Position numbers and translations under genes: made by a program
Notes under the pieces: generated by a model
Database searches by the model: none
Told to the model about the DNA's origin: nothing
Seen by the model: only the letters and a program-made list of their open reading frames with translations
In this document: piece by piece, positions 197 to 60,796 of the stretch
How positions within the stretch are numbered: position 1 is the first letter of the stretch
Layout: each line of letters begins with the position of its first letter
Virus record (IMG/VR): IMGVR_UViG_3300045988_131014
Span: 1 to 64,000 of that record
Strand: one strand, 5' to 3'
Origin: a virus
DNA: 64,000 nt

Positions 197-865
197 ATGA
201 ACACATCATATAAAACAGCAATCAAATTCAAAGATTTATATATTCCCGTAAAAATGTTAAAAACATCACACAATAGTTCTATAGAACTTAATCAACTCTG
301 CAAAGACTCCAAAGAAAGAGTGCGTTATATCAAATTTTGTCCATCTTGTAATAAAGAAATCCACAATGAAGATATTGTAAAAGGATATAAATATGCAGAA
401 GATAAGTATGTTATTTTGGAACAACATGATATAGAATCAATTACATCAAACAAAGATAGAACACTTTCAATAAAATATTTCTGTAAATCAAAGGAAATAT
501 CAGACCTACTCATAGATAAATCATATTATTTAATTCCTGAAATGGAGTCAGAAATCGAATATGAACTTCTTCGTAAAGCTATGACTATGAATAGAGTAGT
601 AGGTATGGCTGAAATTGTATTAGGTACAAAACAAGAATTAGTTGCGTTGTTTGCCAATAAGAATTGTATTATTGCAACCATTTTATTTTATGAGAACGAG
701 ATTAACGAATTACCGATTATCATGAAGCATAAAACAGATAAACAGCAACTCGAAAATCTCAAACAAGATATCTTAGATAATACAAAAGAATTTGATTGGG
801 AATCTCATTATGATAAATATCAACTCAAGTTAAGAAAATTGATATTTGATAAAATTACAAAATGA
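197..865 (+). CDS. ku: Ku-family DNA end-binding protein
   Basis: Collinear with bacterial Ku: N-terminal KTAIKFKDLYIPVKM, RVRYIKFCPSCNKEI..EDIVKGYKY, KSYYLIPE, LLRKAM; SD AAGGAG upstream. Confidence 0.85.
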   Translation: MNTSYKTAIKFKDLYIPVKMLKTSHNSSIELNQLCKDSKERVRYIKFCPSCNKEIHNEDIVKGYKYAEDKYVILEQHDIESITSNKDRTLSIKYFCKSKEISDLLIDKSYYLIPEMESEIEYELLRKAMTMNRVVGMAEIVLGTKQELVALFANKNCIIATILFYENEINELPIIMKHKTDKQQLENLKQDILDNTKEFDWESHYDKYQLKLRKLIFDKITK

Positions 866-3390: not shown

Positions 3391-4437
3391 TTATTTAGTC
3401 TCTTCGTCAGCAACATCAGAATTTTTACTTCTTAAAGCATTGATTTTGTTCATAACTTCTGCTTTAGTTTGTTTCCTGCAATAGAACTCCCTAGTGGTTT
3501 CAGTCGAACGGTGATTGGCAAGCTCGGCTGCTAATGCTAAATCACCAGTTTCTTCATATACAAGATTTAGCCTAGTCTTACGCTGGCAATGAGGTCTATA
3601 GTCAGAAATTCCAATAATTTCGCCATATTTCTTCATTCTATCTCTAATTGCACTGTCACCCATAGGTTTATATTCTCCATTGTATTTTGTAATTAACAAT
3701 GAATCACATTCCAAGTGGTCATAATCATTCTTTCGCATTTCAAGCCATTCTTGAATAAGTTCTTTTGCAACATCCCCAAAAACCACCTGTGTACGGTATC
3801 CTTCCTTCTCCCTTATATCTACGAACATGTTATTCTCTAAATCAAGTTTAGATAGTTGCAACCTTAACAACGCACCAATTCTATTTGCTGAGTCAAAACT
3901 TACCTCAAATAAAATTTGATCCTGAATTGAATACTTATCATTTTCAGATAATTCTCTACGGATTGTCTGAACTTGTTCTTCTGTAAGGAAGTAAGAGTTC
4001 AAAATATGTTCCTCATTAGCTTTCTTCATTCTATCAAGTTTACCGTCAAAAGGATGATACTTAACGAAACCACGCTTCATAGACCAAATATAGAATGAAC
4101 TAACAGCAGAGATTTTCATGTTGATAATCTTTTTATGATTCAGAAGTGTTTCTTGACAGAACATAATATAGTTCTCCATAATATCAACGGCATTCTCCAT
4201 AAACTCATCTGAATATAAATCTAAATCACCATAGTTTTCGCCTAACCACATAAGAAAATGACGAAATAATCCTTCATATCTTTTATATGTAGTGTCTTTA
4301 ACATCCTGATTTTTAATAATATTTGATTGTAGATATTTCTTATATTTCTTCAAGTTATCAGGATTTATGAATTTCTCCTTATCCTTGGTAAAATATTTTA
4401 CCCTTGTTACATGTGCCACTAAATCACTTCCTTTCAT
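3391..4437 (-). CDS. tyrosine recombinase / phage integrase family
   Basis: C-terminal catalytic signature RPHCQRKT (HxxR) and HRSTETTREFY (His..Tyr); N-terminal SAM-like core-binding region. Confidence 0.85.
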   Translation of the reverse strand: MKGSDLVAHVTRVKYFTKDKEKFINPDNLKKYKKYLQSNIIKNQDVKDTTYKRYEGLFRHFLMWLGENYGDLDLYSDEFMENAVDIMENYIMFCQETLLNHKKIINMKISAVSSFYIWSMKRGFVKYHPFDGKLDRMKKANEEHILNSYFLTEEQVQTIRRELSENDKYSIQDQILFEVSFDSANRIGALLRLQLSKLDLENNMFVDIREKEGYRTQVVFGDVAKELIQEWLEMRKNDYDHLECDSLLITKYNGEYKPMGDSAIRDRMKKYGEIIGISDYRPHCQRKTRLNLVYEETGDLALAAELANHRSTETTREFYCRKQTKAEVMNKINALRSKNSDVADEETK

Positions 4438-4473: not shown

Positions 4474-5874
4474 CTAAGCGACATTTTCTATATTTAAAAA
4501 ATCAAATATTTCTTCCATAGTTTTTGTTCTTAAATCATCTCTTTTAATAATCTTATAATTTAAATGATTTTCCTTAAACAATTTTTCTTTATATCTTATC
4601 TTGAAAAAATATATCTGTTCTTCACGACTTCTAAGTTTAGAAAAATCATATGTATTTATAAAACCAGCCATTTCAACATACCAAACAGTTCCATCTGTAA
4701 GAGTAAATCTATAATCACAATTCATTTTCCCTTTATAATTAGTAGTGAAATCTACATAAGGTATATCTCTATCATATTTTATACCTTTAGATTTTAACCA
4801 TGTGGATATATCATATTCGCAACTACTGTCACATCTTTCACCATCATCCATATAAAACTCTGGTCTTCTACAATTCGGTTTAAATCCATAATGAATACAA
4901 GTTTCAGCCCAACTTCCAAATCTTTGTTGATAAACCCAAAATGAAGGTCTTCCAGTTTTATTAAAATCCTGTATTGTTGGGACTCTATCATATTCGTTAA
5001 CAAAATCCATAAATGCTTTATCTAACTCAGATTCTTTATATTCAGCTTTCTGATTTATTTTAAGACCAAGTGATTCTAAACAATTATTATATCCACCAAA
5101 ATATTTTTTGAAATAATTTTTAAGTTCAGTTCCATAATATTTATTTATATCACGTATTCCAGGAATTTTATTATATTTTTCAATGTATTCAAATATTATA
5201 TTCTGAAGGAATTCCGCATTATCATGCTTTAATACATAATCATCATTTTCATTTAAAACATAATTTTTTGCATATTCTTTTTCATCAAATCCACACTCAT
5301 GTAAAACATTTTTTCAACTACCAAATTTGTTATTATATGTCTTTCTATTTGGCATACCGTATTCTTTGCCATGAGTATCAATAAATTTAGCACTTGGGAT
5401 AAACCCATTTTCACTTACAAAATTTTTGACTGCTTCAATTAACTCTTCCTTAGAATATGAATGACCTCTATATGTACCAGTTTCTTCAAATCCTAATTCC
5501 TTGTTCATTTTATTAAAACTGCCAAAATAATATAGTATGTCACTTTTTTTAACCTGTTTATTATTTTCAAAATCAGAAAGTTTAATGTTTCTTCCCAATT
5601 GTTCTCTTAATTTAATTGCATATTCACATACTTGTTCTTTAGTAGGACGTTCTCTATAATATGCTTCTTCTCCAAGATATTTTAGAAAATCTGAAAACGT
5701 ACTTATATTCAAATCATCTGGTGCATTTCCAGGATACCAACTCCAACATTTTAATCCCATAAATCCATACTTTAACATTGTACAAGTAATTGTTTTTTCT
5801 AATTGTTTGCAAGCAGATTTATATTTTTCTACTTCGTCATACCATATTTTTTCATCGACTTTGTTTCTTCTCAT
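4474..5874 (-). CDS. homing-endonuclease-like protein with four FGSW-type repeats and a C-terminal nuclease-like domain, interrupted by one in-frame TGA (5314..5316)
   Basis: Track ORFs 5314..5874 and 4474..5010 are in the same frame. The 303 nt between them has no stop. The TGA falls at the Trp position of the repeat (FGS*KNVLHECGF vs FGSWAETCIHYGF). Confidence 0.7.
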
Positions 5875-6914: not shown

Positions 6915-7199
6915 TTAGAGCTGTTTTGCAGACTTTGACATCTTAAAGTAAATCTCATCATGCTGTGGAGTTACATACTCCTCACCTTTGCGATTGCCCA
7001 TCATAATTTTTCCTCTACGCTCTGGAACTTCTTTAACCTTAAACTTTCCAAGTTTACCAACTGCGACTGATTCTGCGAGGTTTGCTGTTAATGTCTCTGT
7101 AATTACATCTGCAAATGCATCAAGAATAACTGCTATGTCCTTCTGTGAAGCTCCTTCAACCTTGTTTGATACTGCCTTTAATACTTCGTTCTTTGTCAT
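6915..7199 (-). CDS. HU/IHF-family DNA-binding protein
   Basis: MTKNEVLKAVS..SQKDIAVILDAFADVITETL..GKLGKFKVKEVPERRG..P is the typical HU fold signature; 94 aa. Confidence 0.85.
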   Translation of the reverse strand: MTKNEVLKAVSNKVEGASQKDIAVILDAFADVITETLTANLAESVAVGKLGKFKVKEVPERRGKIMMGNRKGEEYVTPQHDEIYFKMSKSAKQL

Positions 7200-7401: not shown

Positions 7402-8397
7402 CTACTTTGTCATGAAATTAGTAATAATTCTTGTCTTGGAATCAATAATGTCACCATTTGAATCCAATGCAAGATACATAAACCCGTTCTGATTTGGAAT
7501 TATAAGTTTACCGTTGTTATAATCCAGCTTATCCAAATCACACACACAACCTTGCTCATACATTTTTATTCCACCTTGAGTAGAACTTCCTACTTTATGG
7601 GTATGAGCCATTACGATTCCAGTAAATGTGCGATCTACACGCAAGAAATAATTGACTGCCTTTTCTGTTGTTTTTAACATACCAGATGAATAATTTAATG
7701 GGTGACAGAAAATTACATTACCTTCTTTTATCCACCATTCTTTATCATAAACGATTTCAATATTTGAATCTTCAAACACTTCACGAATAGAAGAGTATTG
7801 TGTCTGGGTTTTATTTCTTTCATCATTAACTTTGAATCCATCGTCTACAATCATTCCTAGCGGATCTGTTGGGATGATGCCAAGTAATTCGTTTGATAAT
7901 CTATCAGAACAGTATCTTTGCATACGGTATTCATGATTTCCCATCACAAACATTACCTTTTTAGGTGTAGTCAGATTGATTAAATCAATAATATACTGTC
8001 TTCCTAAAACAAGTTCTTCATCAAGATTTACTTTGAATTTTTTAGGAAATGCAGAACATGAAAAACAATCCAATAAATCACCATTGACTATTAAAGTGTC
8101 TACAATTCCCTTATAACCTGAAAAAATATCAATAGGTAAATTAAACGGAATATGAACATCTGACACACATAAAATTCTTTCAGATGCACCCTCACAGTTG
8201 TGAATATAATTATCATACTCTTCATATCCAACAGCCTGTTTTCTAAGCTGATCTGGTGTAATGTTCAATCCAAGCATATCTCGAATTTCAATCCAATCCA
8301 TATCTGTCTCTTTACGTTTCTTTGCAAGGCAACATCTTAATTTCCATTCAAAATCTGTTTCATTTTCCAATCTATGTAAGTCGATTATAACATCCAC
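7402..8397 (-). CDS. calcineurin-like metallophosphoesterase
   Basis: Motifs SDVHIPF, NGDLLD, GNHEYR, MAHTHK in canonical order. Confidence 0.8.
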   Translation of the reverse strand: MDVIIDLHRLENETDFEWKLRCCLAKKRKETDMDWIEIRDMLGLNITPDQLRKQAVGYEEYDNYIHNCEGASERILCVSDVHIPFNLPIDIFSGYKGIVDTLIVNGDLLDCFSCSAFPKKFKVNLDEELVLGRQYIIDLINLTTPKKVMFVMGNHEYRMQRYCSDRLSNELLGIIPTDPLGMIVDDGFKVNDERNKTQTQYSSIREVFEDSNIEIVYDKEWWIKEGNVIFCHPLNYSSGMLKTTEKAVNYFLRVDRTFTGIVMAHTHKVGSSTQGGIKMYEQGCVCDLDKLDYNNGKLIIPNQNGFMYLALDSNGDIIDSKTRIITNFMTK

Positions 8398-9161: not shown

Positions 9162-9236
9162 TTGGAAATGTAGGATTTGAACCCACGACCTCCTGAACCC
9201 AAATCAGGCGTTCTAACTAAACTGAACTAATTCCCA
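9162..9236 (-). tRNA. second, divergent tRNA-Pro (anticodon TGG), no encoded CCA
   Basis: Reverse strand TGGGAAT/ATTTCCA acceptor, D arm TAGTTCAGTTTAGTTAGAAC, anticodon stem CCTGA/TCAGG with loop TTTGGGT, T arm GTGGG-TTCAAAT-CCTAC. Confidence 0.8.
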
Positions 9237-10069
9237 AAATAAAAAATCCCATACCGAAGTATGAGATCCTTGCTTAATATGAGCTGAGATATTTGACTCA
9301 ATACACTAACATCTACTATGGTTGGACACAGTTTATCACACAAGCGATTAACTTGTAGTTAGCAACAACACCGATTTTGACATAATCGGCAAACTCTTAC
9401 CACAAAGTATTATAGATTTTCTTTCTGCACATTCTTCCTTGCGAGATTCATAGGTTGCAGCCTATTAGAGTTGTACGTACTTGTACTTTCTCATATAACA
9501 CCTTGCGAGTGCTATATGTCACCATATTACAGGTGAATAAGTTGTTTTTCTCTTTGCGGTCGCACACACTTTTGCTGTTTTGTAATTTTCTTTTAAATAT
9601 TTTTACCTAAAATAATTTGATTTCTTTCAAAAGTATGTACTTATTATGGACGATGAGGTGTACATTTGATCATCCGTACCTTTTGAGTACAGCCCAATCA
9701 TCACCATCCTACTCGGATTGCGATCTCCTTGCTTTTTGATTCCATCCCTGTTTTTCAACTTAAGAGATATTACCAAAATCCTATCAGCGGTTATACTTGC
9801 GATATTCCCACCAATAGTACACAAATCATACCCACATTTCTGCGTTACTACAGTGCCTATTTCAAGACACCCACCAATCAACCATATTCGCCAACAGTTG
9901 TCCTTGAATAGAAGGTTGGGCGTAGATTTTATGTGTTTTCCGTTAAACTGTATTTCACAGTCGCAGCCTTATAATACGATAAGAACCACTTTATACATGT
10001 CGCCATGCTTATTTTTGAGATTTAACATCTCCTGATCCGAAACCAACCAGTCCTACAAAAGTAGAAAAG
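9237..10069. ncRNA. About 830 nt non-coding spacer between tRNA-Pro and tRNA-Asn (candidate large structured RNA)
   Basis: No protein-like ORF in six frames; composition differs from the coding parts; multiple hairpins; ends with a conserved 19-mer also found at 6061. Confidence 0.35.
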
Positions 10070-10142
10070 CTCTTCCAGTAAGACTCGAACTTACGACTTT
10101 CGCATTAACAGTGCGATGCTCTACCAACTGAGCTATAAGAGA
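10070..10142 (-). tRNA. tRNA-Asn (anticodon GTT), no encoded CCA
   Basis: Reverse strand D arm TAGCTCAGTTGGTAGAGCA, anticodon stem TCGCA/TGCGA with loop CTGTTAA, T arm GTAAG-TTCGAGT-CTTAC; acceptor has a C4-A69 mismatch. Confidence 0.8.
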
Positions 10143-10679
10143 TTAAAAGAATAATCGGCAACCATACTACAAGAATTGTAGCACAGTCACCGACACATAT
10201 AAGAAGAGGAGTACAATATGAATATGTACCAATCTTAGAAATGATTTTTAGAATTGTTCTGTTTGAAAACGCCTTCGAATCGTTCCCCATAGGTTTGATT
10301 CCTATATATCTTCCACAGAAATGCATGGTACAGTCTCGCTTGATGTACTTAACTGGTTTTATCACACATGCACAAGTTTTTCATATGGCATCACATCAAC
10401 TAACTTATAGCCATATGTTAGACGAACTTTATACTATTATATTCTCTGTTTTATCAGCCAAGAAAAGCTGATTTCATTCTAAATCTGCAATGCCACTCGA
10501 AAGAGTAGCAGAGCAGACATACAAAGATTGTCGGTTTGTTTCTTCCATGACAATCGTTTTTGTATCATATTTTTGTAAATATTTCACTATATCTACATTT
10601 AAGAAAAACGAATTTTTTTTAAAAATGTGCAAAAAAGCCTTATAAATCAATGGTTTTAGCGAATGAGTTTTTCGAACAT

Positions 10680-11456
10680 TTATGCGTTTCTCAAGGTTTT
10701 CATACGTTCTTTTGCCTTATTTTTATCTATTTCCTTTGCACATTTTTCACAATATAACTTTGGTCTTCCAGTCTTTGTTATTCTTATTTTTCTTCCACAA
10801 CCAGAATTTGCACACTGCTTATAACCTTTTTTAAAATTCCCTATGTACTGATTACCAATATTCTCAAATTGAGTTACCTTATAAGCAATATCATCATCAG
10901 TGTCTCCTAAATCTATTTTGATATTAAGATTATTCACCTTTTTCCCAAAATGAATATAACCATTACTATATAACTCATGCAATAATTCATTCTTTTTATC
11001 AGATGAGAGAGTAACATTGGCAAGTTTAAATACTTCTGAAAGACCTTTTGAGTCTTTTTTATTTATCCATCCTTCACTATTCATATATCTTGCAATAGCA
11101 AATAGTGTAAACATAAATTTCTTTTGGCGATCATTTGGAAGAGACTCCACGACTTTTAATTCTTTTTCATAGATAGGAACATACTCAAGTTCCCTAAAGA
11201 GATTTTTTGATTCTGAATCATATAAATCAGTACATGTCTTTTTGATTTTATTGGCATATCTATATTCCTGATATCCTTCAATATTGAATTCAAGCATCTT
11301 TGCTTTGACTGTATCAATTAGAATATTTGGATCTTTACCTCTATCAAAATAATACTTAGCAATCAATGTTATCAAATATCCATTCGATATATTGTCTGGT
11401 TTATTACCAGACACTAATATCTCTCTAATATATTCTTTTTCATTCAGTATATACAA
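10680..11456 (-). CDS. hypothetical protein with C-terminal zinc ribbon
   Basis: 258-aa ORF overlapping the 852-aa gene by 17 nt; C-terminal CANSGC..YCEKC. Confidence 0.65.
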   Translation of the reverse strand: MYILNEKEYIREILVSGNKPDNISNGYLITLIAKYYFDRGKDPNILIDTVKAKMLEFNIEGYQEYRYANKIKKTCTDLYDSESKNLFRELEYVPIYEKELKVVESLPNDRQKKFMFTLFAIARYMNSEGWINKKDSKGLSEVFKLANVTLSSDKKNELLHELYSNGYIHFGKKVNNLNIKIDLGDTDDDIAYKVTQFENIGNQYIGNFKKGYKQCANSGCGRKIRITKTGRPKLYCEKCAKEIDKNKAKERMKTLRNA

Positions 11457-13998
11457 CTTCTTCCTCCATTTCTTCTAAACGCTTAATAATTAGTTCTCCA
11501 ATACAATCCCAACAAAACTGCCTATTACCTTTATATCCATAAGTCATATCAAGAATGATATTCATACGTTCATCATCATTTGGACATATTTCTTCGGCTT
11601 TCTTCTTAAACATTTCAACCATACTTGCACGTTGATAATATTTGTCGAATTCGTCCTGCTTATCAAAGATATCAGTTCTATTTAACTGTATTCCTTTTTC
11701 TTTTACCTGTTTCTTTTTATATTCTTTAATACATTCACAATAATATTGTTCAAGTTCTCGCAGAGCTTGTCTGTGTTCTTCAGTACAACGTCTTTTTACT
11801 TTTAGTATATTATAATCAAATGAAGAGTCCTTATGTAGCTGAGACTTATATCCGTCTAACTGACTTTCAACATATTTGCAAATTTGGTTCATAGAACAAT
11901 TTCCTGTACCAACTGGCATTTTTCTTTCGTACCAAAATAGAAAATCTTCTTGTTCTTTTGTAAGACTATCTTTGTTATACAAATCCTTGATAGAACATTT
12001 GTAGATAGCATAGCACTTAGCATTACTTTCTTTGATATACTGTTTATATTGTCTTTTAGTCTCATCATAAACATAAATCATAAAGTATGGCTTTCTGTAT
12101 GCGCAAAGCGATTGCAAATATCTATTCTCTCCGCAAGCACCTAAATTGTACCAACTACTTTCCATTGGTTTTGCAATGATTCCCTTAATTTTGTCCAACT
12201 CATTTTGTTGATAGAGCTGACCACATTCTATTCTATATTCTAATTCTTTATATTCAGATGAATCTTTCTCAAAATGAGATTGAACTTCCATCATAGATGT
12301 GACATAATTAGTGATTGTTCCAACTTGATTTCCCATACCTGCTTTATTTGTTTTTTTAACAGCAGCTTCAGTAACAACAATTTTTTCTGCATTTCGCTGA
12401 ACACATTCGATAGCAGGTAAATATCTATAACGTCTTTTCATAACTGGATTATTAGTAGAAAAGTTCAGATCCGAGTCCCAATCTTCCCCATTCTCAGCCA
12501 TACAAAATGAATCCCAACCGTTTATAATCATGATAGTATTCATATATTGATACCAATACTGACATTCATCCGAATTATTGATATTACACATTCGAATATT
12601 ATTATGACTTGTCATTGGGCTTCTAAAGAGTACAATTTCATCTTCATTTTTATCAATCCAAAATTTTGAATAACATTCATTTGCTTTTAATAAACCTGTA
12701 ACTTCCAACCCACAAAGAGATTGCATAAGAGCAAATGGATCGCCACTTGCAATCTGATAGTTACCTTTTACAAATAATTTACCAATTTTCGCATCATTCA
12801 TTTTTTTCTTGATATATCTATGTACAGAGTCGATTATATATGGATCTCCCAACATATATTCGCTTGTATATAAAGCACGTTGCCATGAATTTACATCAGT
12901 ATTTTCGTTAATACCAAGAAATTTAATAGTAGAAGAGTAGTCACCACACATAGCATCTTTTAAATAGTTGATTGTTGGTGCGCACAATTCCTCAACATCT
13001 TCGTCTGTAAATTCATAAGACTGAAGATATTGGTAATTCAATTCTCTCTGTTCTTCAAGAACATGCGGTGAAATTTTTGTTACAGAAAATCCGTATCCAC
13101 ATTCCTTATATGCATTCACATATTGCTCAATATTATCATACGCTCCCCATAATTTAAGAGAAGACTCTGTGACAATCATTTCACATTGACGAATATCTTG
13201 CATGTTTCCCCAAATATCTTCAATCATATAATTACCATTATTGTATTTTTCAATAAATTCATAAATAGGGAACGGATAGAGCATTCCTTTGAGCCATGCG
13301 TTTCTCAAGCACACACCGCCAGGAATATAATCAAGACCTAAAGATTCAGCTACTCGCTGCATATATTGTATAGTACAAAGATTAAAACCGTCAGATACAT
13401 TGTTTTCAAGAGCTTTATCTTTAATAATTTCTCTTGTCGGTTCTTTTGAATCGCCACCATCATCAAGTGATATAACATCTGCAAAATATTGTGTAATACA
13501 ATCTTTTACAACCAAAATTCCATGTGGATCACAAATCGGTTGTGATGCAGAACATGTTAATGCTTTGTAAGCTTCGTATTTTGCAGGAACTAATTTAGTA
13601 TCTGGATTTCTCTTGCATTCACATAATTCATTTAATTTGTCAATGTACTGTGAATTGCAGAAGAGAAGAGTATTATTTTTTAATCCACCAGTAGTTCCGA
13701 CAAAGCGTTTATAATTAACACCATTTATGATAACACCTTTTTTACCAGTCGCTCTTGCAAAATCAGATTTTTTATCAACAACTACCTGCATAAATATCTT
13801 TGAAAAATCAATACTCCAAATAGGTTTTTCTAAAATCTTATTTGCCATTATGCGGAATTCTTGGGCTTCAAACAGTGATATGAGTTCCTGATATTTAAAA
13901 GCCTCTTCTTTGGTAATCTGTAAATCCCAATTAGAATACTTTAGTTTATTTGTTCCAATTTTAAAAATCTCATATTGAGGTACGCTAATACCAGCCAT
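11440..13998 (-). CDS. candidate single-subunit two-barrel RNA polymerase (YonO / RdRp-like)
   Basis: 852 aa. FRSPMTSH (residues 458-465) followed about 40 aa later by DWDSD (codons at 12469..12483). This mirrors beta-prime RAPTLH..NADFDGD and eukaryotic RdRp RNPCLHPGD..DLDGD. Confidence 0.55.
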   Translation of the reverse strand: MAGISVPQYEIFKIGTNKLKYSNWDLQITKEEAFKYQELISLFEAQEFRIMANKILEKPIWSIDFSKIFMQVVVDKKSDFARATGKKGVIINGVNYKRFVGTTGGLKNNTLLFCNSQYIDKLNELCECKRNPDTKLVPAKYEAYKALTCSASQPICDPHGILVVKDCITQYFADVISLDDGGDSKEPTREIIKDKALENNVSDGFNLCTIQYMQRVAESLGLDYIPGGVCLRNAWLKGMLYPFPIYEFIEKYNNGNYMIEDIWGNMQDIRQCEMIVTESSLKLWGAYDNIEQYVNAYKECGYGFSVTKISPHVLEEQRELNYQYLQSYEFTDEDVEELCAPTINYLKDAMCGDYSSTIKFLGINENTDVNSWQRALYTSEYMLGDPYIIDSVHRYIKKKMNDAKIGKLFVKGNYQIASGDPFALMQSLCGLEVTGLLKANECYSKFWIDKNEDEIVLFRSPMTSHNNIRMCNINNSDECQYWYQYMNTIMIINGWDSFCMAENGEDWDSDLNFSTNNPVMKRRYRYLPAIECVQRNAEKIVVTEAAVKKTNKAGMGNQVGTITNYVTSMMEVQSHFEKDSSEYKELEYRIECGQLYQQNELDKIKGIIAKPMESSWYNLGACGENRYLQSLCAYRKPYFMIYVYDETKRQYKQYIKESNAKCYAIYKCSIKDLYNKDSLTKEQEDFLFWYERKMPVGTGNCSMNQICKYVESQLDGYKSQLHKDSSFDYNILKVKRRCTEEHRQALRELEQYYCECIKEYKKKQVKEKGIQLNRTDIFDKQDEFDKYYQRASMVEMFKKKAEEICPNDDERMNIILDMTYGYKGNRQFCWDCIGELIIKRLEEMEEEVVYTE

Positions 13999-14062: not shown

Positions 14063-14374
14063 TTACTTACTTTCAGATTTTCCTTCGTTGAAAGCTACAA
14101 TTCCAAACATATCAACAGAAATTATCAATCCTATTGTTCTAATACATAAATTGTCAACCATGATTGCGAAAATAAAAATGAAAGCAATTGATATAAATGT
14201 TAGGAATTCATATATTAACTTTTTATGAAATCTCTTTTTATCAATATAATGCTGTTTATCCTTAAATTTCACATACCAGAAATCTTGTGTGTTGCAAAAC
14301 TGAGGTAATTTATCTTTTAGTTTATTTACAATTTTATTCATCATAGTCCTCCATTTCTTTGTATTTAAATCCAA
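14063..14374 (-). CDS. hypothetical membrane protein
   Basis: 103-aa ORF with two hydrophobic segments (FLTFISIAFIFIFAIMV, GLIISVDMFGIVAF). Confidence 0.6.
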   Translation of the reverse strand: MDLNTKKWRTMMNKIVNKLKDKLPQFCNTQDFWYVKFKDKQHYIDKKRFHKKLIYEFLTFISIAFIFIFAIMVDNLCIRTIGLIISVDMFGIVAFNEGKSESK

Positions 14375-14543
14375 GCCAATTAATTACTTTGTCTGTGCCA
14401 ATACATCCAATACAGTCCTCATGCATATATTCTCCGTTTTCATTATCAAGATAGCGTTCACCTTGATAAATCCCTTCTCCGCAATAGCAGCATAAATATT
14501 TTGTGGTACTAATTGAATAACGGTAATAACCATTACAATGCAT
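14334..14543 (-). CDS. hypothetical Cys-rich (zinc-binding-like) protein
   Basis: CCYCGEG..HEDCIGC pattern and an acidic tail. No SD of its own; overlaps an alternative-frame ORF that has a strong SD. Confidence 0.45.
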   Translation of the reverse strand: MHCNGYYRYSISTTKYLCCYCGEGIYQGERYLDNENGEYMHEDCIGCIGTDKVINWLGFKYKEMEDYDE

Positions 14544-24582: not shown

Positions 24583-24891
24583 ATGAAGATAACAGGAATA
24601 ATTCGTAGAGTTGATGATTTAGGTAGAATAGTAATTCCAAAGGAAATTAGAAGGCAGGTGTTTGGGAAAACGGATGCAACTGGTGAGCCAATGGAAATAT
24701 TTATTGATGAAGGAAATGTTGTACTCCGAAGATACGAGGAAATACAAACTTGTAAATGGATAAAATACGATTATAGAACGATTTGCCCGAAAGAACATGA
24801 TGCGAACACCCCATATTGGAGAATACCTGAAAATATGGATAAATTAAAATATTGTCCTTATTGTGGCAAAGAAATAGTTATTGAGGATTAA
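24583..24891 (+). CDS. AbrB/SpoVT-family DNA-binding domain fused to a C-terminal zinc ribbon
   Basis: GIIRRVDDLGRIVIPKEIRRQVF is the swapped-hairpin signature; C-terminal CPKE..CPYCGK. Confidence 0.8.
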   Translation: MKITGIIRRVDDLGRIVIPKEIRRQVFGKTDATGEPMEIFIDEGNVVLRRYEEIQTCKWIKYDYRTICPKEHDANTPYWRIPENMDKLKYCPYCGKEIVIED

Positions 24892-31469: not shown

Positions 31470-31739
31470 ATGGAAAGTTATAAAATTAGTTATAATGGTG
31501 ATACTCAAATTAAAAATATTCACCATATAGGTGTTGATTATAATGGAAATTATTATAGCGTGATTTTCGGAGAATATGTAAATGGAGGATTCTTTAGTAT
31601 TCCAAATTGGAATTGCGGTGGTGAGTTAGCTGGGTTTAGTGATGTGTTTTGGAATACAGAATCTATTCAGAAATCATTAAAAAGTAAAAGAGCAGCTAAA
31701 GCTATTGCAAAAGCGATATCAGATTATGTAAAGGAGTGA
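31470..31739 (+). CDS. hypothetical protein
   Basis: GGAAGGTGG SD upstream. Confidence 0.6.
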   Translation: MESYKISYNGDTQIKNIHHIGVDYNGNYYSVIFGEYVNGGFFSIPNWNCGGELAGFSDVFWNTESIQKSLKSKRAAKAIAKAISDYVKE

Positions 31740-31744
31740 TTGGT

Positions 31745-32725
31745 ATGTGTTATAAGATAGAAGTACAAAATAGAAACGCAGAGAAGCTTAATAGGAAGTT
31801 GGATGAGTTAAATCTTCCTATATATATGAGAAAATATTTCACTGTTAGAATAGAGAGTAAAGCAGGTGCGTTGAATTATCTTGGAGTTATTGTAGATTTA
31901 CTCAATTGGTTTATTGAAGAAAAACTTATTGACAAAACAAATATTTCAGATATTAAGCCATCGGATTTTACCGATATTATGGCAGAGGATATTACATTAT
32001 ATTTGAAAACTAAAGAACAGAATGGTATGTCACCAACCACATTGGAAACTAGAAAGCATATGATAAGTAGCTTTTGGGATTATATGAGTAGAGTAATGGG
32101 AGCTGAAATTAAAGATAAATTCTTCAAAGATGTAACATATAAAGGAATTCCATCTGGAAACAATTTAACTAAAAAACTTCCAACAGAAAAACAGCTTAAT
32201 GATATGGAAGAGAAAATAATGTGGAAAAAGGATATTCCAGTAAGAAATAGAAATATTGCTATCTTTCGTGTATTAAGAGGAACTGGAATAAGAGAATCTG
32301 AACTTGCTGGTTTAGATTTATCTGATTTACATTTGGACGAAGAAATGCCATATATTACTATTCTTGGTAAAGGTGTGTACCGAGAAATGCAAAATAGAGC
32401 AGTATATCTTAGCGGATCTGCTCTGAAAGCATTAAGAGAATGGTTAGAATACAGAAGCACCTTAGATAATATTGTAGATACGGAAGCTGTGTTTGTAAAT
32501 AAAAATGGCACACGTACAACGGAAAGAAATATCAAACAGATATTTGAGAATTATGGAAATGGTATTACTCCACATATGATGCGACATTATTATGCTAGTA
32601 TAATGAACAGAAATGGAAATCTTGCATTTGTTCAGCAGCAGTTGGGGCATAGTAGTGTAAATACAACAGTTAATAATTATGCAAACGGAGCTGTTGGTAT
32701 GAGAGAAAAATTAATGGAGATGTGA
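31745..32725 (+). CDS. tyrosine recombinase (XerC/XerD-like integrase)
   Basis: RGTGIRESEL (Arg I), HMMRHYYAS (HxxR), LGHSSVNTTVNNY (His..Tyr). Confidence 0.85.
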   Translation: MCYKIEVQNRNAEKLNRKLDELNLPIYMRKYFTVRIESKAGALNYLGVIVDLLNWFIEEKLIDKTNISDIKPSDFTDIMAEDITLYLKTKEQNGMSPTTLETRKHMISSFWDYMSRVMGAEIKDKFFKDVTYKGIPSGNNLTKKLPTEKQLNDMEEKIMWKKDIPVRNRNIAIFRVLRGTGIRESELAGLDLSDLHLDEEMPYITILGKGVYREMQNRAVYLSGSALKALREWLEYRSTLDNIVDTEAVFVNKNGTRTTERNIKQIFENYGNGITPHMMRHYYASIMNRNGNLAFVQQQLGHSSVNTTVNNYANGAVGMREKLMEM

Positions 32726-33300: not shown

Positions 33301-33666
33301 ATGACTGTAAACTTTGGGGATGTTATGATGATTGACTTTGGAGAAGACAATATTAATTCAGTTCAAGTAGGAGTAAGACCAGATGTGATCATTCAGAACG
33401 ACATCGGGAACAAATATTCTCCAACCTCAATAGCTGTTCCTTTGACCAGTGAAATCAAGAAATTAAATATGCCATGTCATAAAGTCCTACATATGAATGA
33501 ACAAAATGGCTTGACGGAAGATTCAATGGTGCTTGGAGAGCAAGTAAGGGTAATTGACAAAAATTCGATATTATACAAAATGGGCACTTTAAACGATGGT
33601 GAATGTGATCTTGTCGTTAAAGCATATTTTGCAAATGTACCTAGAAGGAGGGTTAGTTGTGGCTGA
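33301..33666 (+). CDS. mazF: MazF/PemK-family endoribonuclease toxin
   Basis: GDVMMIDFG..VGVRPDVIIQND..N..SPTSIAVPLTS..LTEDSMVLGEQVRVIDK is collinear with the PemK family. Confidence 0.8.
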   Translation: MTVNFGDVMMIDFGEDNINSVQVGVRPDVIIQNDIGNKYSPTSIAVPLTSEIKKLNMPCHKVLHMNEQNGLTEDSMVLGEQVRVIDKNSILYKMGTLNDGECDLVVKAYFANVPRRRVSCG

Positions 33667-35993: not shown

Positions 35994-37430
35994 ATGGCAA
36001 ACAAAGTAAGAGAAGAAAATATCCCATTAATTAACTATACCAATGAGGTAAAAGATGAAGATGTTAGTGATAATCAGGACGTACAGAGATATTTCTGTAG
36101 TGACAAGCCATTTGTTAATGGAATTGGCGTTACGATTTTAACTGGTGACTATCTTCCACCTTTAATTTTAGCTGAAGTTCCATTAAATGAAGATATCGTA
36201 CAGAAATATATTGTGGATGGTCTTCAGAGAACAACCGCATTAATGCAGATTAGATACGGAAATCATAAATTTACTGGTGCTATTGAAGATAGTGAAATTG
36301 AGTACCAAGAAAAACAGGTAGATGAAAATGGAAAATTCTTAAAAGATGATGACGGGAATTTTGTATGGGAAAAGAAAACATTTGATATTAAAAATAAAAC
36401 ATATGATGATTTTCCAAAAGAACTGAAGAAGCGTTTTGACAATTATCAGCTCAGAATTGCCACATATCAAAATTGTGATATGAAAAAGGTAAGCAAATTG
36501 GTAAGAAAGCTGAATGTACAAAGAGGAATGAATACAAGTCAGAGAGCATTGACTTGGATTCCTACATATGCAAGAAAAATTAAAAATATTGCTGATGAAG
36601 GATTTTTTAAAAATAGTATTGAGTATTCTGACACTGCCAGAAAAAATGGAGAATATATGCAGAGCGTATGCCGATCTGTTATGAATGTTTTTCATTTTGA
36701 TGACTACAAACGTGGTGCAAAAGAAATATGTGATTATCTCGAAGATAATAGTAACATTGAAGAATTCAATACAGTCCATGAATATTTTCAAAGAATCGAA
36801 GCAGCTTGTAAAGATACTTGTAAAGATATTCTTGTCAAAAAAGATATTCCTGTATGGCTGACAGTATTCAGTAGATTTGTAAAATGTGGTTTAGAAGATA
36901 GCAAGTTTGCAGATTTTATTCATGAGTTATCAGGAAAATTACATAGTATTGATGTTAATGGTGTCAGTTACGATTCGTTAAATAAAGAGTCTGGTACTAC
37001 AGACAAAAAACTTGTAGTTGCTAAAATTAATACATATACAGCTTTGATGAACGATTTTTTACATTTTGATATAACAGAAACAAGTAGCACAGAAGTAGAG
37101 AATAACAATACAGAAGAAAATGCTGAAGATAATACGGAAGAAAGTGTTCTTTCCTTTGTTCAAGAAAATGCAAATCCAAATGTGACAGACGAAGATATAA
37201 ACCTTTACACAGACATGGTAGAAGATTGTGTTAAGATTGACGATCCAGTTTATAAAGAGTGTGGAATGGCATTAGTAGCACTCATGGCATATGCTTGTCA
37301 AAATGATAAGGATCAGGATTTTGAAAAATGGATTGAGAATTACAGAAATAAATCTGATTTTAGTTCATCACAGAAAGTTAATTATACATATATGAAACGC
37401 AGCTTTGATAATTTTATAGCAAATGCGTAA
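35994..37430 (+). CDS. DUF262 (ParB-like / GmrSD N-terminal) domain protein
   Basis: Hallmark DGLQRTTAL motif in the N-terminal third. SD AAGGAGGAAAT upstream. No obvious HNH/DUF1524 motif in the C-terminal half. Confidence 0.65.
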   Translation: MANKVREENIPLINYTNEVKDEDVSDNQDVQRYFCSDKPFVNGIGVTILTGDYLPPLILAEVPLNEDIVQKYIVDGLQRTTALMQIRYGNHKFTGAIEDSEIEYQEKQVDENGKFLKDDDGNFVWEKKTFDIKNKTYDDFPKELKKRFDNYQLRIATYQNCDMKKVSKLVRKLNVQRGMNTSQRALTWIPTYARKIKNIADEGFFKNSIEYSDTARKNGEYMQSVCRSVMNVFHFDDYKRGAKEICDYLEDNSNIEEFNTVHEYFQRIEAACKDTCKDILVKKDIPVWLTVFSRFVKCGLEDSKFADFIHELSGKLHSIDVNGVSYDSLNKESGTTDKKLVVAKINTYTALMNDFLHFDITETSSTEVENNNTEENAEDNTEESVLSFVQENANPNVTDEDINLYTDMVEDCVKIDDPVYKECGMALVALMAYACQNDKDQDFEKWIENYRNKSDFSSSQKVNYTYMKRSFDNFIANA

Positions 37431-37799: not shown

Positions 37800-38084
37800 A
37801 TGCATTTGATTCGTCTGTATATGATGTGTTTGGATATTCTTGAAAAAGAGAGAATAATCACGTATAGAGAAGACGAACATGATTTACTTATGGATATTCG
37901 TAATGGTAAGTATTTGGATAGCAACGATCAGCCAATCCCAGAATTCTTTGAAATGGTAAATGATTATGAAAAGAGATTGGATTATGCGAAGAAGAACACA
38001 AATCTTCCTGATAATCCTAATTATAAGGCTATCAATGAATTTGTTGCTAGTGTAAATGAAAGGGTGGTAAAAGGTGAAATCTAA
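37800..38084 (+). pseudogene. C-terminal fragment of an RlaP-like (RNA-repair-associated) nucleotidyltransferase family protein
   Basis: KHSMHLIRLYMMCLDILEKERIITYRE resembles the family's C-terminal helix. The N-terminal catalytic half is absent. The SD-preceded ATG at 37703 is in another frame and stops at TGA 37760. Confidence 0.4.
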
Positions 38085-39426
38085 TCTAAAAATTGAAATT
38101 CCATATGGTGCAAATGAAATTATTCATACCTTACAGAATAATGGATATGAAGCTTTCTTAGTTGGAGGGTGCGTAAGAGACAGTATCCTTGGAAGACCAA
38201 TTCACGATTATGACATTACAACTTCTGCCACACCAGATGAAATGATGGAAGTATTCAAGGACAAGAGAATTATTGAAACTGGTTTGCAACATGGAACTAT
38301 TACCATTGTAATTGACGGTGATGGATATGAATGTACCACTTACAGAATTGACGGTAATTACTCAGATAGTCGTAGACCTGATAGTGTAACATTTACACGA
38401 AATCTTAAAGAAGATTTAAAGCGTAGAGATTTTACAATCAATGCAATGGCATATAATGATGAAGTTGGTCTTGTAGATCCGTTTAATGGTATGGAAGATA
38501 TTAAATACCACAAGATTAGATGTGTTGGTAGAGCAGAAGACAGATTTTCAGAAGATGCATTAAGAATTTTACGTGCTATTCGGTTTGCATCACAGTTGGG
38601 ATTTGTCCTTGAACCTGATACAGATTGGAATATCTCTAAAATGTATAAGAATTTGGAGAATATATCTATTGAAAGGATCAATAGTGAGTTCTGTAAAATT
38701 GCTGCATCGAGTGATTTCTGTGTACAAATGGTCTTATATCACGAAGTATTCTCATTGTTCATTCCTGAAATTAAAGACATGTTTGGCTTTCAACAGAATA
38801 ATCCATATCATATTTATGATGTATGGAATCATACAGTACATGCAATAGAATATTGTGAATCTGATGATTTAGTAACAAGATTAGCTGTGTTCTTTCATGA
38901 CATAGGAAAGCCACGTTGTTATCAAGATAGCGAGGATGGTATTAGACATTTCAAAGGTCATGGAAGAGTCAGTGCTGATATGACTGATAAAATAATGAAG
39001 CGATTAAGATTTGACAATGATACAAGAGAAAAGGTCGTTGAATTAGTCTATTATCATGATGCTACTTTTGAGGTGGGAAAGAAATATATCAAGAGATGGC
39101 TTAATAAAATTGGGGAAGAACAGTTCAGAAGGTTATTAAATGTTCGTAGAGCTGATATTAAAGCACAAGCAGACATTAATCAGGGAACAAGGTTACAGAA
39201 GATTGATAACATCGGATATATTTTAGAAGAAGTCTTACAGGATGATGAATGTTTTTCTCTAAAGGATTTAGCAGTTAATGGAAAGGATTTAATTACTATT
39301 GGATATAAGCCAGGAAAAGAAATTGGTGAGGTATTAAATAATCTGTTGGATTCAGTCATTAGTGGAGAATATATAAATGAGAAAGAAAAACTATTAGAAA
39401 TAGCAGAGAGAAGATTACATGGTTAA
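38074..39426 (+). CDS. cca: CCA-adding tRNA nucleotidyltransferase with HD domain
   Basis: GGCVRDSILGRPIHDYDITT, RRDFTINAMA, LRAIRFASQLGF, and HD motif FFHDIGKP. Confidence 0.9.
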   Translation: MKSNLKIEIPYGANEIIHTLQNNGYEAFLVGGCVRDSILGRPIHDYDITTSATPDEMMEVFKDKRIIETGLQHGTITIVIDGDGYECTTYRIDGNYSDSRRPDSVTFTRNLKEDLKRRDFTINAMAYNDEVGLVDPFNGMEDIKYHKIRCVGRAEDRFSEDALRILRAIRFASQLGFVLEPDTDWNISKMYKNLENISIERINSEFCKIAASSDFCVQMVLYHEVFSLFIPEIKDMFGFQQNNPYHIYDVWNHTVHAIEYCESDDLVTRLAVFFHDIGKPRCYQDSEDGIRHFKGHGRVSADMTDKIMKRLRFDNDTREKVVELVYYHDATFEVGKKYIKRWLNKIGEEQFRRLLNVRRADIKAQADINQGTRLQKIDNIGYILEEVLQDDECFSLKDLAVNGKDLITIGYKPGKEIGEVLNNLLDSVISGEYINEKEKLLEIAERRLHG

Positions 39427-40339
39427 ATTATTCAGTCATACAGATTTAGATGGAATCGGTTGTGGTATTTTGGCAAAACTTGCATTCGGAGATGATGTAG
39501 ATATTTCATATTGTGATTATGATAACATTGATTCAAGTGTCATGGAGTTTATTGATAGTGAAACAGAATTTGATATGTGTATTATTACAGATATCAGAGT
39601 AAATGAAGATACAGCGAAAATTATTGATGACAGATTTAATAATTTTTATTTATTAGACCATCATCCAACAGCTCTTGGACTTAATAAGTATCTTTGGTGT
39701 TCTGTGACTATTGAGTATGAAGATATGGAACTTGGAACTATTAAAACCAGTGGAACAGAGATGTTTTATTATTGGTTAATCAAGAATGGTTATTTAAAAG
39801 ATTCAGAGACATTAAGAAGATTTGCTGAACTTGTGAGAGATTATGACACTTGGAGATGGTCGGAACTTGGTGGAGATGGGGTTATTTGTAAGCAGGTGAA
39901 TGACTTACTTTATCTGTATGGTCGAGATGATTTTATTCATTGGTGCGTTAACGAGATACGTGGTGAAATATTCCCATTATTATCTGCTAAAGATGAGGTC
40001 GTTCTAAAGATTAAGCAGGATGAAATTGATAGATATATCGAAGAGAAGAACGAAACTATGTTTACCAGTCCTATGTGTGGTAAGGTTTGTGGTTTTGTAT
40101 TTGCAGATAGGTTTGTTAGTGAATTAGGTAATAGACTTTGTAAAATGCATCCTGAAATCGATTTCGTGGCTATGATTGATATTGATGGTTGCACAGTATC
40201 TTATAGAACTGTTAAAGAAGATCTTGATCTTGGTAAAGAGGTAGCAAGTTTATTTGGTGGCGGCGGTCATCCAAAAGCTGCTGGTTCAGAATTTAGTCAG
40301 ACTATTAAGTTAAAAATTATTGAGAAAATCTTCGAATAA
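39419..40339 (+). CDS. DHH/DHHA1-family phosphoesterase (NrnA-like)
   Basis: HTDLDGIGCG, ITD, LLDHHP, and DHHA1 motif GGGGHPKAAG; overlaps the cca stop. Confidence 0.8.
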   Translation: MVKLFSHTDLDGIGCGILAKLAFGDDVDISYCDYDNIDSSVMEFIDSETEFDMCIITDIRVNEDTAKIIDDRFNNFYLLDHHPTALGLNKYLWCSVTIEYEDMELGTIKTSGTEMFYYWLIKNGYLKDSETLRRFAELVRDYDTWRWSELGGDGVICKQVNDLLYLYGRDDFIHWCVNEIRGEIFPLLSAKDEVVLKIKQDEIDRYIEEKNETMFTSPMCGKVCGFVFADRFVSELGNRLCKMHPEIDFVAMIDIDGCTVSYRTVKEDLDLGKEVASLFGGGGHPKAAGSEFSQTIKLKIIEKIFE

Positions 40340-41583: not shown

Positions 41584-42108
41584 ATGAGAGAAACATTAAT
41601 TGTTGTAGATATGCAGAATGATTTTATTGATGGAACACTTGGTACAAAGGAAGCACAGGCAATTGTATCAAATGTAGCAAAGAAAATTAAGGAGTATAAG
41701 GATGCTGGTAAGCAGGTAATTTTTACAAGAGATACACATTCTGAGAATTACTTAGAAACATACGAGGGTAAGCACCTTCCTGTTGCTCACTGTGTAAAGA
41801 ATACTATTGGTTGGCAGATTTCCGATAAGTTAGATTTTGATATTGAGAACGATATTCTGATTGATAAGCCTACATTTGGTTGTTTAAACTGGAAGGATTT
41901 TGGATTTGAAAGCGTTGAGATTTGCGGATTATGCACCGATATCTGTGTGGTTTCAAATGCACTTATTATCAGAGCAAATTATCCTGAGATTGATATTACA
42001 ATAGATGCAAGTTGCTGTGCAGGTGTCACACCTGATACTCACAAGGCTGCATTAGCAACTATGAAGATGTGTCAGATCGAAGTGATTGGAGAGAATAATG
42101 AAGTGTAA
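41584..42108 (+). CDS. pncA: nicotinamidase (isochorismatase/cysteine-hydrolase family)
   Basis: VVDMQNDF (Asp), DTH..LPVAHCV..T.GWQI (metal site / PncA-type), IDKPTFG (Lys), ICGLCTDICV (Cys). Confidence 0.8.
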   Translation: MRETLIVVDMQNDFIDGTLGTKEAQAIVSNVAKKIKEYKDAGKQVIFTRDTHSENYLETYEGKHLPVAHCVKNTIGWQISDKLDFDIENDILIDKPTFGCLNWKDFGFESVEICGLCTDICVVSNALIIRANYPEIDITIDASCCAGVTPDTHKAALATMKMCQIEVIGENNEV

Positions 42109-42652
42109 GAATTATATCATTAATACTTTCAGACATTTTAAGAAAGTCTGTACTCATAAACGTTGGGTATTCTACTATTGCTGTAAAGTGGGAATTCCAT
42201 TTCAAGGGTTAGTACATGATTTATCTAAATTTTCTCCAACGGAATTTTGGGAGAGTGTTAAGTATTATCAAGGTACTTCAAGTCCAATAGATGCTTGCAA
42301 GAAAGAGAATGGTTGGTCAGTAGCTTGGATGCACCATAAAGGAAGAAACAAGCACCATTACGAATATTGGCAGGACAATTTTGATAATGGTGGAAATCCT
42401 ATTGAAATGCCAATGAAGTATAAAAAAGAAATGCTTTGTGATTATCTTGGAGCAGGTAGAGCATATCATGGTAAATCATTTAATTTTGAGAAGGAATTAA
42501 AATGGTGGGAATCTAAGAAAAGTAAACCAATTGCAATGCATCCAAATGACATGGCTTTTATTGATAAGTACATTAATCTGTTTTATGAGTACGAAAACAG
42601 AGAATATGATATTAGAACAATATTTAATCAAATCAAGAAAGAAGGAAAATAA
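42098..42652 (+). CDS. His/Trp-rich protein of unknown function inside the NAD operon (DUF5662-like by recollection)
   Basis: GGAG 7 nt upstream. LVHDLSKFSP..WMHHKGRNKHHYEYWQD. Overlaps pncA and abuts pncB. Confidence 0.6.
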   Translation: MKCKNYIINTFRHFKKVCTHKRWVFYYCCKVGIPFQGLVHDLSKFSPTEFWESVKYYQGTSSPIDACKKENGWSVAWMHHKGRNKHHYEYWQDNFDNGGNPIEMPMKYKKEMLCDYLGAGRAYHGKSFNFEKELKWWESKKSKPIAMHPNDMAFIDKYINLFYEYENREYDIRTIFNQIKKEGK

Positions 42653-42653
42653 T

Positions 42654-44481: not shown

Positions 44482-44497
44482 GAAGGAGAATATATAA

Positions 44498-59253: not shown

Positions 59254-59478
59254 ATGAGAGCATACAAATGTGATGTTTGTGGTAAGTATTGTGAAGATTG
59301 TTTTGAAATTAAGGATGATACATTTGATGTCTTCCCATCAGATTTCGTTGACAGAGGACAATATGATAAAAAAAAGGTGGAAGTACGAGATTTGTGTTCT
59401 GAATGTTATGTAGATATTAAAAATTATATTCATAACAAAGTATTCAATAGGTTTAAGAAAGAGGAAGAATCGAAGTAA
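59254..59478 (+). CDS. hypothetical zinc-ribbon protein
   Basis: GTGAGGTGAG upstream; CDVCGK..CSEC. Confidence 0.6.
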   Translation: MRAYKCDVCGKYCEDCFEIKDDTFDVFPSDFVDRGQYDKKKVEVRDLCSECYVDIKNYIHNKVFNRFKKEEESK

Positions 59479-59514
59479 AGATTCGTTTCTTGTGGAATGA
59501 AAGGAGAATATATA

Positions 59515-59790: not shown

Positions 59791-59828
59791 ATAAGTAAGA
59801 ATTATCGGTTTCCTTTGGAGGTGAAAAA

Positions 59829-60410: not shown

Positions 60411-60442
60411 AACAGAGAATATATAGTTAGAGAGGTGAGAAT

Positions 60443-60727: not shown

Positions 60728-60796
60728 TCTATGACTCATTCGAGTCACAATTTCCAATAAAAAGAAAATCGAATAGAGAATAAGTAAGAGGTGGAT

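Follow-up and report, generated by a model that had tools for sequence, protein, structure and literature searches.

Here we describe a YonO-family, two-barrel RNA polymerase (RNAP) encoded on the minus strand of a 64,000-nucleotide (nt) stretch of phage DNA (IMG/VR record IMGVR_UViG_3300045988_131014, positions 1 to 64,000; hereafter, the window). In our judgement the 852-amino-acid (aa) protein is quite probably the DNA-templated late-gene polymerase of an SPbeta-like gut phage, acting together with a dedicated 258-aa partner encoded by the next gene downstream. The protein is homologous to YonO of SPbeta, carries the full catalytic set, evolves under purifying selection, lies in a yon-like gene order and, as judged by structure prediction, has the two-barrel fold; the DNA-dependent late-gene role is the function that homology and synteny best support. 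Of all known relatives of cellular RNAPs, the YonO-type enzymes are the smallest; they are used in reasoning about how the cellular enzymes originated, and only one YonO-type enzyme has been studied: SPbeta YonO, a strictly DNA-dependent polymerase that is essential for plaque formation and is needed for 37 late genes, as stated in the YonO passages of PMC5467207. The features central to our analysis are the following:

11440..13998, minus strand: gene of the YonO-family two-barrel RNAP, 852 aa, a single open frame with an ATG start
13285..13392, minus strand: signature of the first (beta-like) barrel, D203-G204 ... R232 ... K237-G238
12604..12627, minus strand: FRSPMTSH (aa 458-465, with R459 and P461) of the second, beta-prime-like barrel
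12469..12483, minus strand: DWDSD (aa 506-510), the catalytic Asp triad D506/D508/D510, with Ser at the usual Gly position
10680..11456, minus strand: accessory gene, 258 aa, with a predicted helical N-terminal domain, winged-helix-like core, zinc ribbon and basic C-terminal helix
10740..10814, minus strand: accessory zinc ribbon C215, C220, C236, C239 (CxxxxC...CxxC), its four Cys invariant in 54 and in 82 sequences

The ATG of the polymerase open reading frame (ORF) is preceded by AAAGGAGGA. The first-pass annotation of the window had noted an FRSPMTSH motif followed about 40 residues later by DWDSD and had proposed a YonO-type RNAP: the motifs lie 41 residues apart, the numbering of D506, D508 and D510 is right, and the assignment is supported by homology, by invariant catalytic residues and by the two-barrel match of the AlphaFold model in Foldseek. 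In BLASTP the protein aligns with SPbeta YonO with an expectation value (E) of 8e-23 and 25 % identity over 453 aa, and tblastn recovers 24 records of SPbeta-type Bacillus phages (aa 26-461, ~25 % identity, E 1e-16 to 1e-20). Searched against phage genomes in the same way, the protein has full-length relatives in Enterocloster phages (49 % identity), Clostridium phage c-st (35 %) and Bacillus phage BUCT082 (29 %). These phages – c-st (BAE47877.1), BUCT082, and Enterocloster PMBT24 and CB4xx, with full-length identities of 29-49 % – form one clade with the window polymerase, and in each the polymerase gene is followed by an accessory gene; the c-st protein is already called YonO-like in the passage of PMC7824862 that mentions it. 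The family is large, comprising 1363 clusters at 50 % identity (E up to 1e-3). The PHROGs families matched by the polymerase (8308, 25339 and 35857) are all of unknown function; a Pfam search with the 852-aa protein gave no family at E up to 1, the RNA-dependent RNA polymerase (RdRP) model PF05183 included; no precomputed Pfam domain is listed for 120 close homologues; and a single-sequence search of PDB sequences gave no match. As the Pfam and single-sequence PDB searches came back empty, it is only through profiles and fold comparison that the polymerase is tied to known structures.

Conservation was counted over 111 full-length family representatives, YonO among them, with the first-barrel residues also scored in 107 sequences. 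Invariant in the family are K140, Y144, D203, G204, K237, G238, K282, Y322, R459, P461, D506, D508, D510, G560, N564, D602 and K605, and R232 is 97 % conserved. Eight residues – four Asp, three Arg/Lys and one Pro – are invariant in all two-barrel polymerases, according to the alignment passages of Ruprich-Robert & Thuriaux 2010 (PMC2919709), and the window protein has all of them (D203, R232, K237, R459, P461, D506, D508 and D510), seven being invariant within the family. The first-barrel spacing, D-29-R-5-K, equals that of QDE-1 D709/R738/K743, while R459/P461 correspond to QDE-1 R962/P964 and Rpb1 R446/P448, and the Asp triad to QDE-1 D1007-1011 (residue numbers as given in the same passages of PMC2919709). 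Since R459, P461, D506, D508 and D510 are invariant in 111/111 representatives and the protein is homologous to SPbeta YonO, the motif resemblance is not due to chance, and the triad does not lie in a non-conserved loop, which the first-pass annotation had considered possible. In a three-way alignment DWDSD stacks on DNDGD of YonO and DFDGD of PMBT24. In a sequence search of the PDB, the family profile matched RDR2 of plants and QDE-1 of fungi (E 1e-5 to 8e-4): the motif of the first barrel is significant, pairing with RDR2 sDGiGkis...iRyggyKG, and the DxDGD motif appears only as a sub-threshold second stretch, in which DWDSD pairs with RDR2 DLDGD.

Structure prediction and fold search, which had been proposed as a check on the assignment, recovered the two-barrel polymerase fold. 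The AlphaFold2 model of the polymerase, computed from the family alignment, has a predicted local distance difference test score (pLDDT) of 94.1 and a predicted template modelling score (pTM) of 0.91. Its best whole-chain matches in Foldseek are RDR2 and QDE-1, with E values of 1.8e-17 to 3e-13 and template modelling (TM) scores of 0.44-0.55 (RDR2: E = 1.8e-17, TM 0.52; QDE-1: TM 0.54), followed by the RNA polymerase gp64 of a Thermus phage (8F72; E = 6e-5); among the viral models of BFVD, the matches are phage entries named 'RNA-dependent RNA polymerase', crAss-like polymerases and P23-45. Matches to beta-prime and Rpb1 chains are weak (E at least 0.09, TM at most 0.11), and the beta-prime architecture beyond the barrel, i.e. 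clamp, bridge helix and trigger loop, was not encountered in the Foldseek search with the model. As judged from the whole-chain matches, the model places two domains of double-psi beta-barrel fold in one active site.

How the enzyme relates to its structural neighbours can be stated in some detail. It shares with QDE-1 (2J7N) and RDR2 (7W82/7RQS) the two-barrel DxDGD active site, identical spacing of the first-barrel D/R/K residues and a TM score of about 0.5; it differs from them in sequence (~12 % identity) and in lacking a Pfam RdRP match, and those enzymes serve eukaryotic RNA silencing on RNA templates, outside any phage context and with no accessory gene. Thermus phage P23-45 gp64 (8F72) and crAss-like gp66 are likewise phage-encoded minimal two-barrel polymerases, found here by fold, but their similarity to the window protein is much lower (TM 0.25-0.3), and they belong to different families and to different genome contexts. 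By every test of membership that could be computed, the protein falls within the two-barrel superfamily and the YonO-like family, and outside both the Pfam RdRP family and the beta-prime architecture; given this outcome, and given that the clade is already recognised via c-st, the enzyme is an unannotated member of a known family and not a new kind of polymerase.

The Ser in the DxDSD triad, which the first-pass annotation called unusual, is less exceptional than it seemed. At position 509 the 111 clusters have Gly in 77 cases, Ser in 12, Phe and Tyr in 7 each and other residues in 8, with Leu, Met, Thr and Ala also occurring. The canonical Gly of DxDGD/NADFDGD is thus absent both from the window protein (Ser509) and from 34 of the 111 family clusters, and because of the latter, Gly between the second and third Asp cannot define the family. 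Of the 12 clusters with Ser, 8 have a Gly-bearing sequence as their most similar representative, and so the Gly-to-Ser change has probably been repeated. DWDSD itself was seen 102 times among 270 collected homologues, mostly close relatives. As read from these sequences, Ser509 is a tolerated natural variant, with no sign of decay.

The second component of the system is the 258-aa protein. As the first-pass annotation had noted, its ORF overlaps the 3' end of the polymerase ORF; the overlap is 17 nt, and the TTG start lies inside the last polymerase codons, 5 nt after GGAGGA. Loci for the linkage test were gathered by polymerase patterns only, and in all 80 of the bacterial genome loci an accessory homologue stands immediately downstream on the same strand, at polymerase identities from 89 % down to 35 %, with the two reading frames usually overlapping or abutting. 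In the phage collection the accessory gene is present in exactly 9 records, those in which the polymerase match covers at least 97 % of the length; it was found in c-st and BUCT082 (by tblastn) and in PMBT24, whereas the 30 remaining polymerase-matching phage records, SPbeta-type and Thomasclavelia phages included, showed no match to it at E < 0.01. At the DNA level, no other block of the neighbourhood is as well conserved as the polymerase/accessory pair. The accessory family comprises ~2000 clusters at 90 % identity; among the matches listed, none has a Pfam domain and the few named ones are 'hypothetical', and the dN/dS (ratio of non-synonymous to synonymous substitution rates) of the gene is 0.17-0.25. 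This strict linkage strengthens the earlier suggestion that the zinc-ribbon protein is a cofactor, its role being a matter of inference. While the 'single-subunit' label proposed for the polymerase is right in that both barrels are on one chain, it may be the wrong name for this clade, in which the polymerase gene invariably comes with a second gene. No other RNAP subunit is encoded nearby, in agreement with the first-pass annotation: no sigma or RNAP-subunit Pfam match was found among the 43 window ORFs of at least 100 aa.

The AlphaFold model of the accessory protein, built from database sequences only (pLDDT 86.6), consists of an N-terminal helical bundle, a core of helices and strands with winged-helix topology, the zinc ribbon and, at the C-terminus, a long basic helix. 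Foldseek gave no significant whole-protein neighbour for it, the partial matches being winged-helix domains of ORC/Cdc6, TubR and CodY, and the accessory profile run against the PDB and Pfam met only generic zinc-ribbon noise and no known family. The informative match is to YonO itself: the last 56 columns of the accessory profile align to SPbeta YonO residues 781-836 (hhalign probability 93.8 %, E = 1.7e-7), and in a control six-frame search of the SPbeta yon region with the accessory hidden Markov model (HMM) the YonO C-terminus was the sole significant match (E = 3.7e-8). The two systems therefore compare as follows: SPbeta YonO (~840 aa) also carries both barrels on a single chain and has the same catalytic residues, but it has a C-terminal zinc-ribbon tail and a ~50-aa N-terminal extension that the window polymerase lacks, while the window has a separate 258-aa winged-helix/zinc-ribbon gene after the polymerase gene, and SPbeta has no such gene. 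The simplest reading of these sequences is that the family ancestrally comprised a polymerase with a DNA-binding partner, of which the SPbeta lineage would have kept only the zinc-ribbon/basic tail, fused to the polymerase.

We regard the 258-aa protein as a candidate initiation or specificity subunit of the polymerase, which would bind the polymerase or DNA. TFE/TFIIE-alpha and TFB/TFIIB, which are small factors for initiation by two-barrel polymerases, are built of winged-helix and/or zinc-ribbon modules; the likeness of the accessory protein to them is an architectural analogy only, with no detectable sequence homology and no significant fold homology. Whether YonO needs a factor to find its promoters was left open by Forrest et al. 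2017 (in the discussion of initiation in PMC5467207), which makes the partner an obvious candidate for such a promoter-finding factor, and the linked gene, with its putative remnant fused in YonO, is a concrete candidate answer to the question. The YonO passages of PMC5467207, PMC2919709 and PMC7824862 make no mention of a partner gene, and the PMBT24 genome paper neither mentions YonO nor lists the polymerase among the assigned functions; the strict linkage of the partner across relatives appears to be the new part of our findings.

The order of genes around the pair mirrors that of SPbeta. The neighbouring features, all on the strand of the polymerase, are:

14063..14543, minus strand: two small upstream ORFs that share the leftward transcription unit; in identical contigs they are annotated as genes of 92 aa and 79 aa
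10070..10142, minus strand: tRNA-Asn
9281..9709 (conserved block ~9230..10224), minus strand: divergent GOLLD-like RNA, matching the complete model of Rfam RF02032
9162..9236, minus strand: tRNA-Pro
7402..8397, minus strand: YonJ-like metallophosphoesterase (Pfam Metallophos; YonJ_N on the corresponding gene of identical or 88 %-identical contigs)
6915..7199, minus strand: HU-like DNA-binding protein (Bac_DNA_binding on the corresponding gene of identical or 88 %-identical contigs)

Read along the polymerase strand, the two small ORFs, the polymerase gene and the zinc-ribbon gene are followed by tRNA-Asn, the non-coding block and tRNA-Pro, and then by two small ORFs, the YonJ-like metallophosphoesterase, the HU-like gene, homing-endonuclease-like ORFs and a tyrosine recombinase; an 88 %-identical relative has a YonG-like (YonG_N) gene further along this strand. 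The SPbeta map reads yonP, yonO, yonN (HU), a 1.68-kb non-coding gap, yonK, yonJ ... yonG, so that in both phages yonJ-/yonG-like late genes, an HU-like gene and a long non-coding gap all lie downstream of the polymerase gene. In PMBT24 the polymerase/partner pair directly precedes HU, terminase and portal genes. The GC skew changes sign at ~15-16 kb of the window and the plus-strand gene block starts at 15158; this puts the polymerase gene in a unit that runs leftward from a divergent control region.

By analogy with SPbeta YonO, D506, D508 and D510 together with D203 would bind two Mg2+ ions, and R232, K237 and R459 would hold the nucleoside triphosphate and the RNA 3' end. The host polymerase would express the polymerase gene from the divergent control region at ~14.6-15.1 kb, and the phage enzyme, making RNA on a DNA template and insensitive to the regulators of the host polymerase, would then transcribe the late genes of the phage, which lie downstream on the polymerase strand. 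Comparative genomics suggests that the translationally coupled 258-aa protein is a dedicated partner of the polymerase, its most likely role being that of a DNA-binding initiation or promoter-specificity factor, and that the zinc-ribbon/basic tail at the YonO C-terminus is all that would survive of it in SPbeta. More tentatively, and with somewhat less than even likelihood, one may extend this picture to most of the YonO family: a two-component holoenzyme in which the partner acts as a minimal sigma or TFB/TFE analogue, with SPbeta YonO as a derived form and a late start possibly located at the tRNA/giant-RNA cassette.

Several observations weigh against our interpretation of the pair as a late-gene polymerase with its own initiation factor. 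Similarity to YonO in BLASTP is restricted to aa 26-461, i.e. to the N-terminal 460 aa, and the C-terminal half can be aligned only via conserved motifs in multiple alignments. Template preference is unreadable from the fold, because the best structural matches are RNA-dependent enzymes. The late-gene assignment draws on synteny in related contigs, as the window has no structural genes, and no polymerase-specific promoter motif could be derived from the surroundings of the operon. The partner's role is read from linkage and from a fold with weak matches (E = 0.04 at best), and no polymerase-accessory fusion was found among 270 polymerase and 240 partner homologues; the clade is known from sequence and model, and the biochemistry within the family is that of YonO.

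The template question bears on the possibility that the protein is instead an RdRP that copies or amplifies RNA, as GenBank names its homologues in Enterocloster phage PMBT24 and in Thomasclavelia phages. The closest solved structures are indeed the cellular RdRPs RDR2 and QDE-1, which the family profile also matches by sequence. However, YonO, the sole characterised member of the family, has a strong preference for DNA templates and is required for transcription of the late genes (in the template and transcription passages of PMC5467207), the gene occupies the yonO position of a double-stranded DNA phage just upstream of late-type genes, the Pfam RdRP model was not reached at E up to 1, and the GenBank names most likely stem from automated similarity to RdRP models; we consider RNA-templated synthesis very improbable as the enzyme's function. 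It is harder still to credit that through the Gly-to-Ser change the enzyme has become inactive or been put to another use, so that only a pseudo-polymerase is left. Gly is invariant at the NADFDGD position in multisubunit polymerases, and it is the majority residue at position 509 within the YonO family too; yet Ser occurs in 12 of the 111 clusters with signs of repeated change, alongside Phe, Tyr, Leu, Met, Thr and Ala, every other catalytic residue is intact, and DWDSD recurs through the collected homologues. The dN/dS of the polymerase gene, measured against relatives with unsaturated dS, is 0.07-0.09, indicating strong purifying selection, and at least 53 contigs were found to carry the exact protein. 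Public assemblies have it indexed in 126 blocks, the contigs being from the human gut and 83-146 kb long. Loss of activity through Ser509 was rejected because of the spread of Ser in the family and the purifying selection.

A different question is whether the polymerase is fully autonomous, like YonO, the zinc-ribbon protein being an unrelated co-transcribed DNA-binding protein such as a regulator, a nucleoid protein or a packaging factor. In vitro, YonO by itself gives stable elongation complexes and transcribes processively (in the elongation passages of PMC5467207), the full accessory protein is never fused to the polymerase among the homologues examined, and its fold matches are generic winged-helix domains. 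However, elongation assays on pre-assembled scaffolds say nothing about initiation, for which the same source leaves the need for a factor open; the two genes stay adjacent in 80/80 loci down to 35 % polymerase identity, with their frames usually overlapping or abutting; the pair is the best-conserved part of its neighbourhood in DNA; and the zinc-ribbon/basic tail of the accessory protein is fused to the C-terminus of SPbeta YonO. An autonomous polymerase with an unrelated neighbour thus seems unlikely, and a polymerase with a dedicated partner remains the interpretation we prefer. The family is very large and abundant in phages of human-gut Lachnospiraceae, and is still annotated as 'hypothetical protein' or mislabelled 'RNA-dependent RNA polymerase'; experiments on it are feasible, as an 89 %-identical copy is present in Eubacterium segne BX4, a host that can be cultured.

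The non-coding block lies between the two tRNA genes, directly downstream of the polymerase/partner operon and before the yonJ-like and HU genes. Its match to GOLLD (RF02032) scores 100.2 bits with E = 1.2e-26, below the Rfam gathering threshold of 150. A non-coding block of 800-1000 nt is conserved in relatives: of 170 loci searched with a sequence-only HMM, 40 have it, in every case on the strand of the polymerase gene and 1.1-2.3 kb downstream of that gene. In the same slot, the relative L056 (75 %) has an above-threshold GOLLD (193 bits) and the relative L086 (66 %) a ROOL RNA (252 bits), and some 98 %-identical phages, e.g. L014, are without the GOLLD-like block. GOLLD and ROOL are known phage RNAs that occur near tRNA islands and assemble into RNA cages (PMC12286853). 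Their position after a YonO-type operon recalls the 'unannotated non-coding RNA' at the start site of SPbeta YonO that a passage of PMC5467207 mentions. Rfam found no GOLLD or ROOL in the searched part of the SPbeta yonN-yonK gap (record 59394..60833), only the DUF3800-VIII RNA motif (RF03075, 47.5 bits versus a threshold of 40.2; AF020713.1 59409..59474, equal to L001 7168..7233) on the late-gene strand. The YonO-dependent late transcript of SPbeta is reported to start upstream of yonK; it was not possible to place the YonO start site, at genome position 2225998, on the SPbeta record. In the window, a scan for sigma-70-type promoters around the operon gave 36 sites versus 38.6 expected, which is chance level.

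Many relatives have interrupted polymerase genes, split either at the Asp triad (aa 506-512; P0179, P0183, P0192 and others) or at the QQN..D..K motif (aa 598-607; P0163, P0171, P0186 and others). Several polymerase genes of the c-st/BUCT082/Enterocloster clade are interrupted too, unlike the window gene, which is intact. In the CB phages the interruption is an insertion of ~1.1 kb with an AP2-domain ORF, of 250 aa in Enterocloster phage CB473P1 (L169 242..3868). The AP2 domain is typical of homing endonucleases, and Rfam found no group I intron in the interrupted CB473P1 gene.

The phage, SPbeta-like and temperate, is large (about 130-145 kb) and has its host among the Lachnospiraceae of the human gut, probably Agathobacter rectalis. 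The 90 %-identity cluster of the polymerase holds 1757 member sequences, including WP_346991212.1 'hypothetical protein [Agathobacter rectalis]' (RefSeq); among isolate genomes, the closest found is that of E. segne BX4 (89 %), and Roseburia and other Lachnospiraceae come next. In the phage collection, Megablast gave no match to the first 25 kb of the window. Polymerase/partner pairs also occur on short contigs binned into metagenome-assembled genomes (MAGs) of a Thermoplasmata archaeon (L101, MUGC01000121.1), Prevotella (L112/L159) and Alistipes (L119); these archaeal and Bacteroidota occurrences are more likely mis-binned phage contigs than true host range.

Elsewhere, the window encodes a Ku homologue (197..865, plus strand), two tyrosine recombinase/integrase genes (3391..4437, minus strand; 31736..32725, plus strand) and two HNH_repeat ORFs (4474..5874, minus strand), which correspond to one 412-466-aa gene in related contigs, so that this gene appears split or disrupted in the window. 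There are seven tRNA genes (Pro x2, Glu, Met x2, Asn and Gln), and a possible RNA repair set on the plus strand (38074..40339, 49010..50329 and 50487..51212) comprises a CCA-adding tRNA nucleotidyltransferase, a DHH phosphoesterase, an RNA ligase and an AAA_33 kinase-like protein. A plus-strand NAD salvage/synthesis cluster (41584..45262), with isochorismatase/nicotinamidase-like, DUF5662, nicotinamide phosphoribosyltransferase, cytidylyltransferase-like (NMNAT-type) and NAD synthase genes, may counter NAD-depleting host defences. Finally, a MazF/PemK-type toxin (33301..33666), a MazE-like N-terminal fragment (24583..24891) and a weak GmrSD_N-like nuclease domain (35994..37430), all on the plus strand, look like toxin-antitoxin or defence-related cargo.

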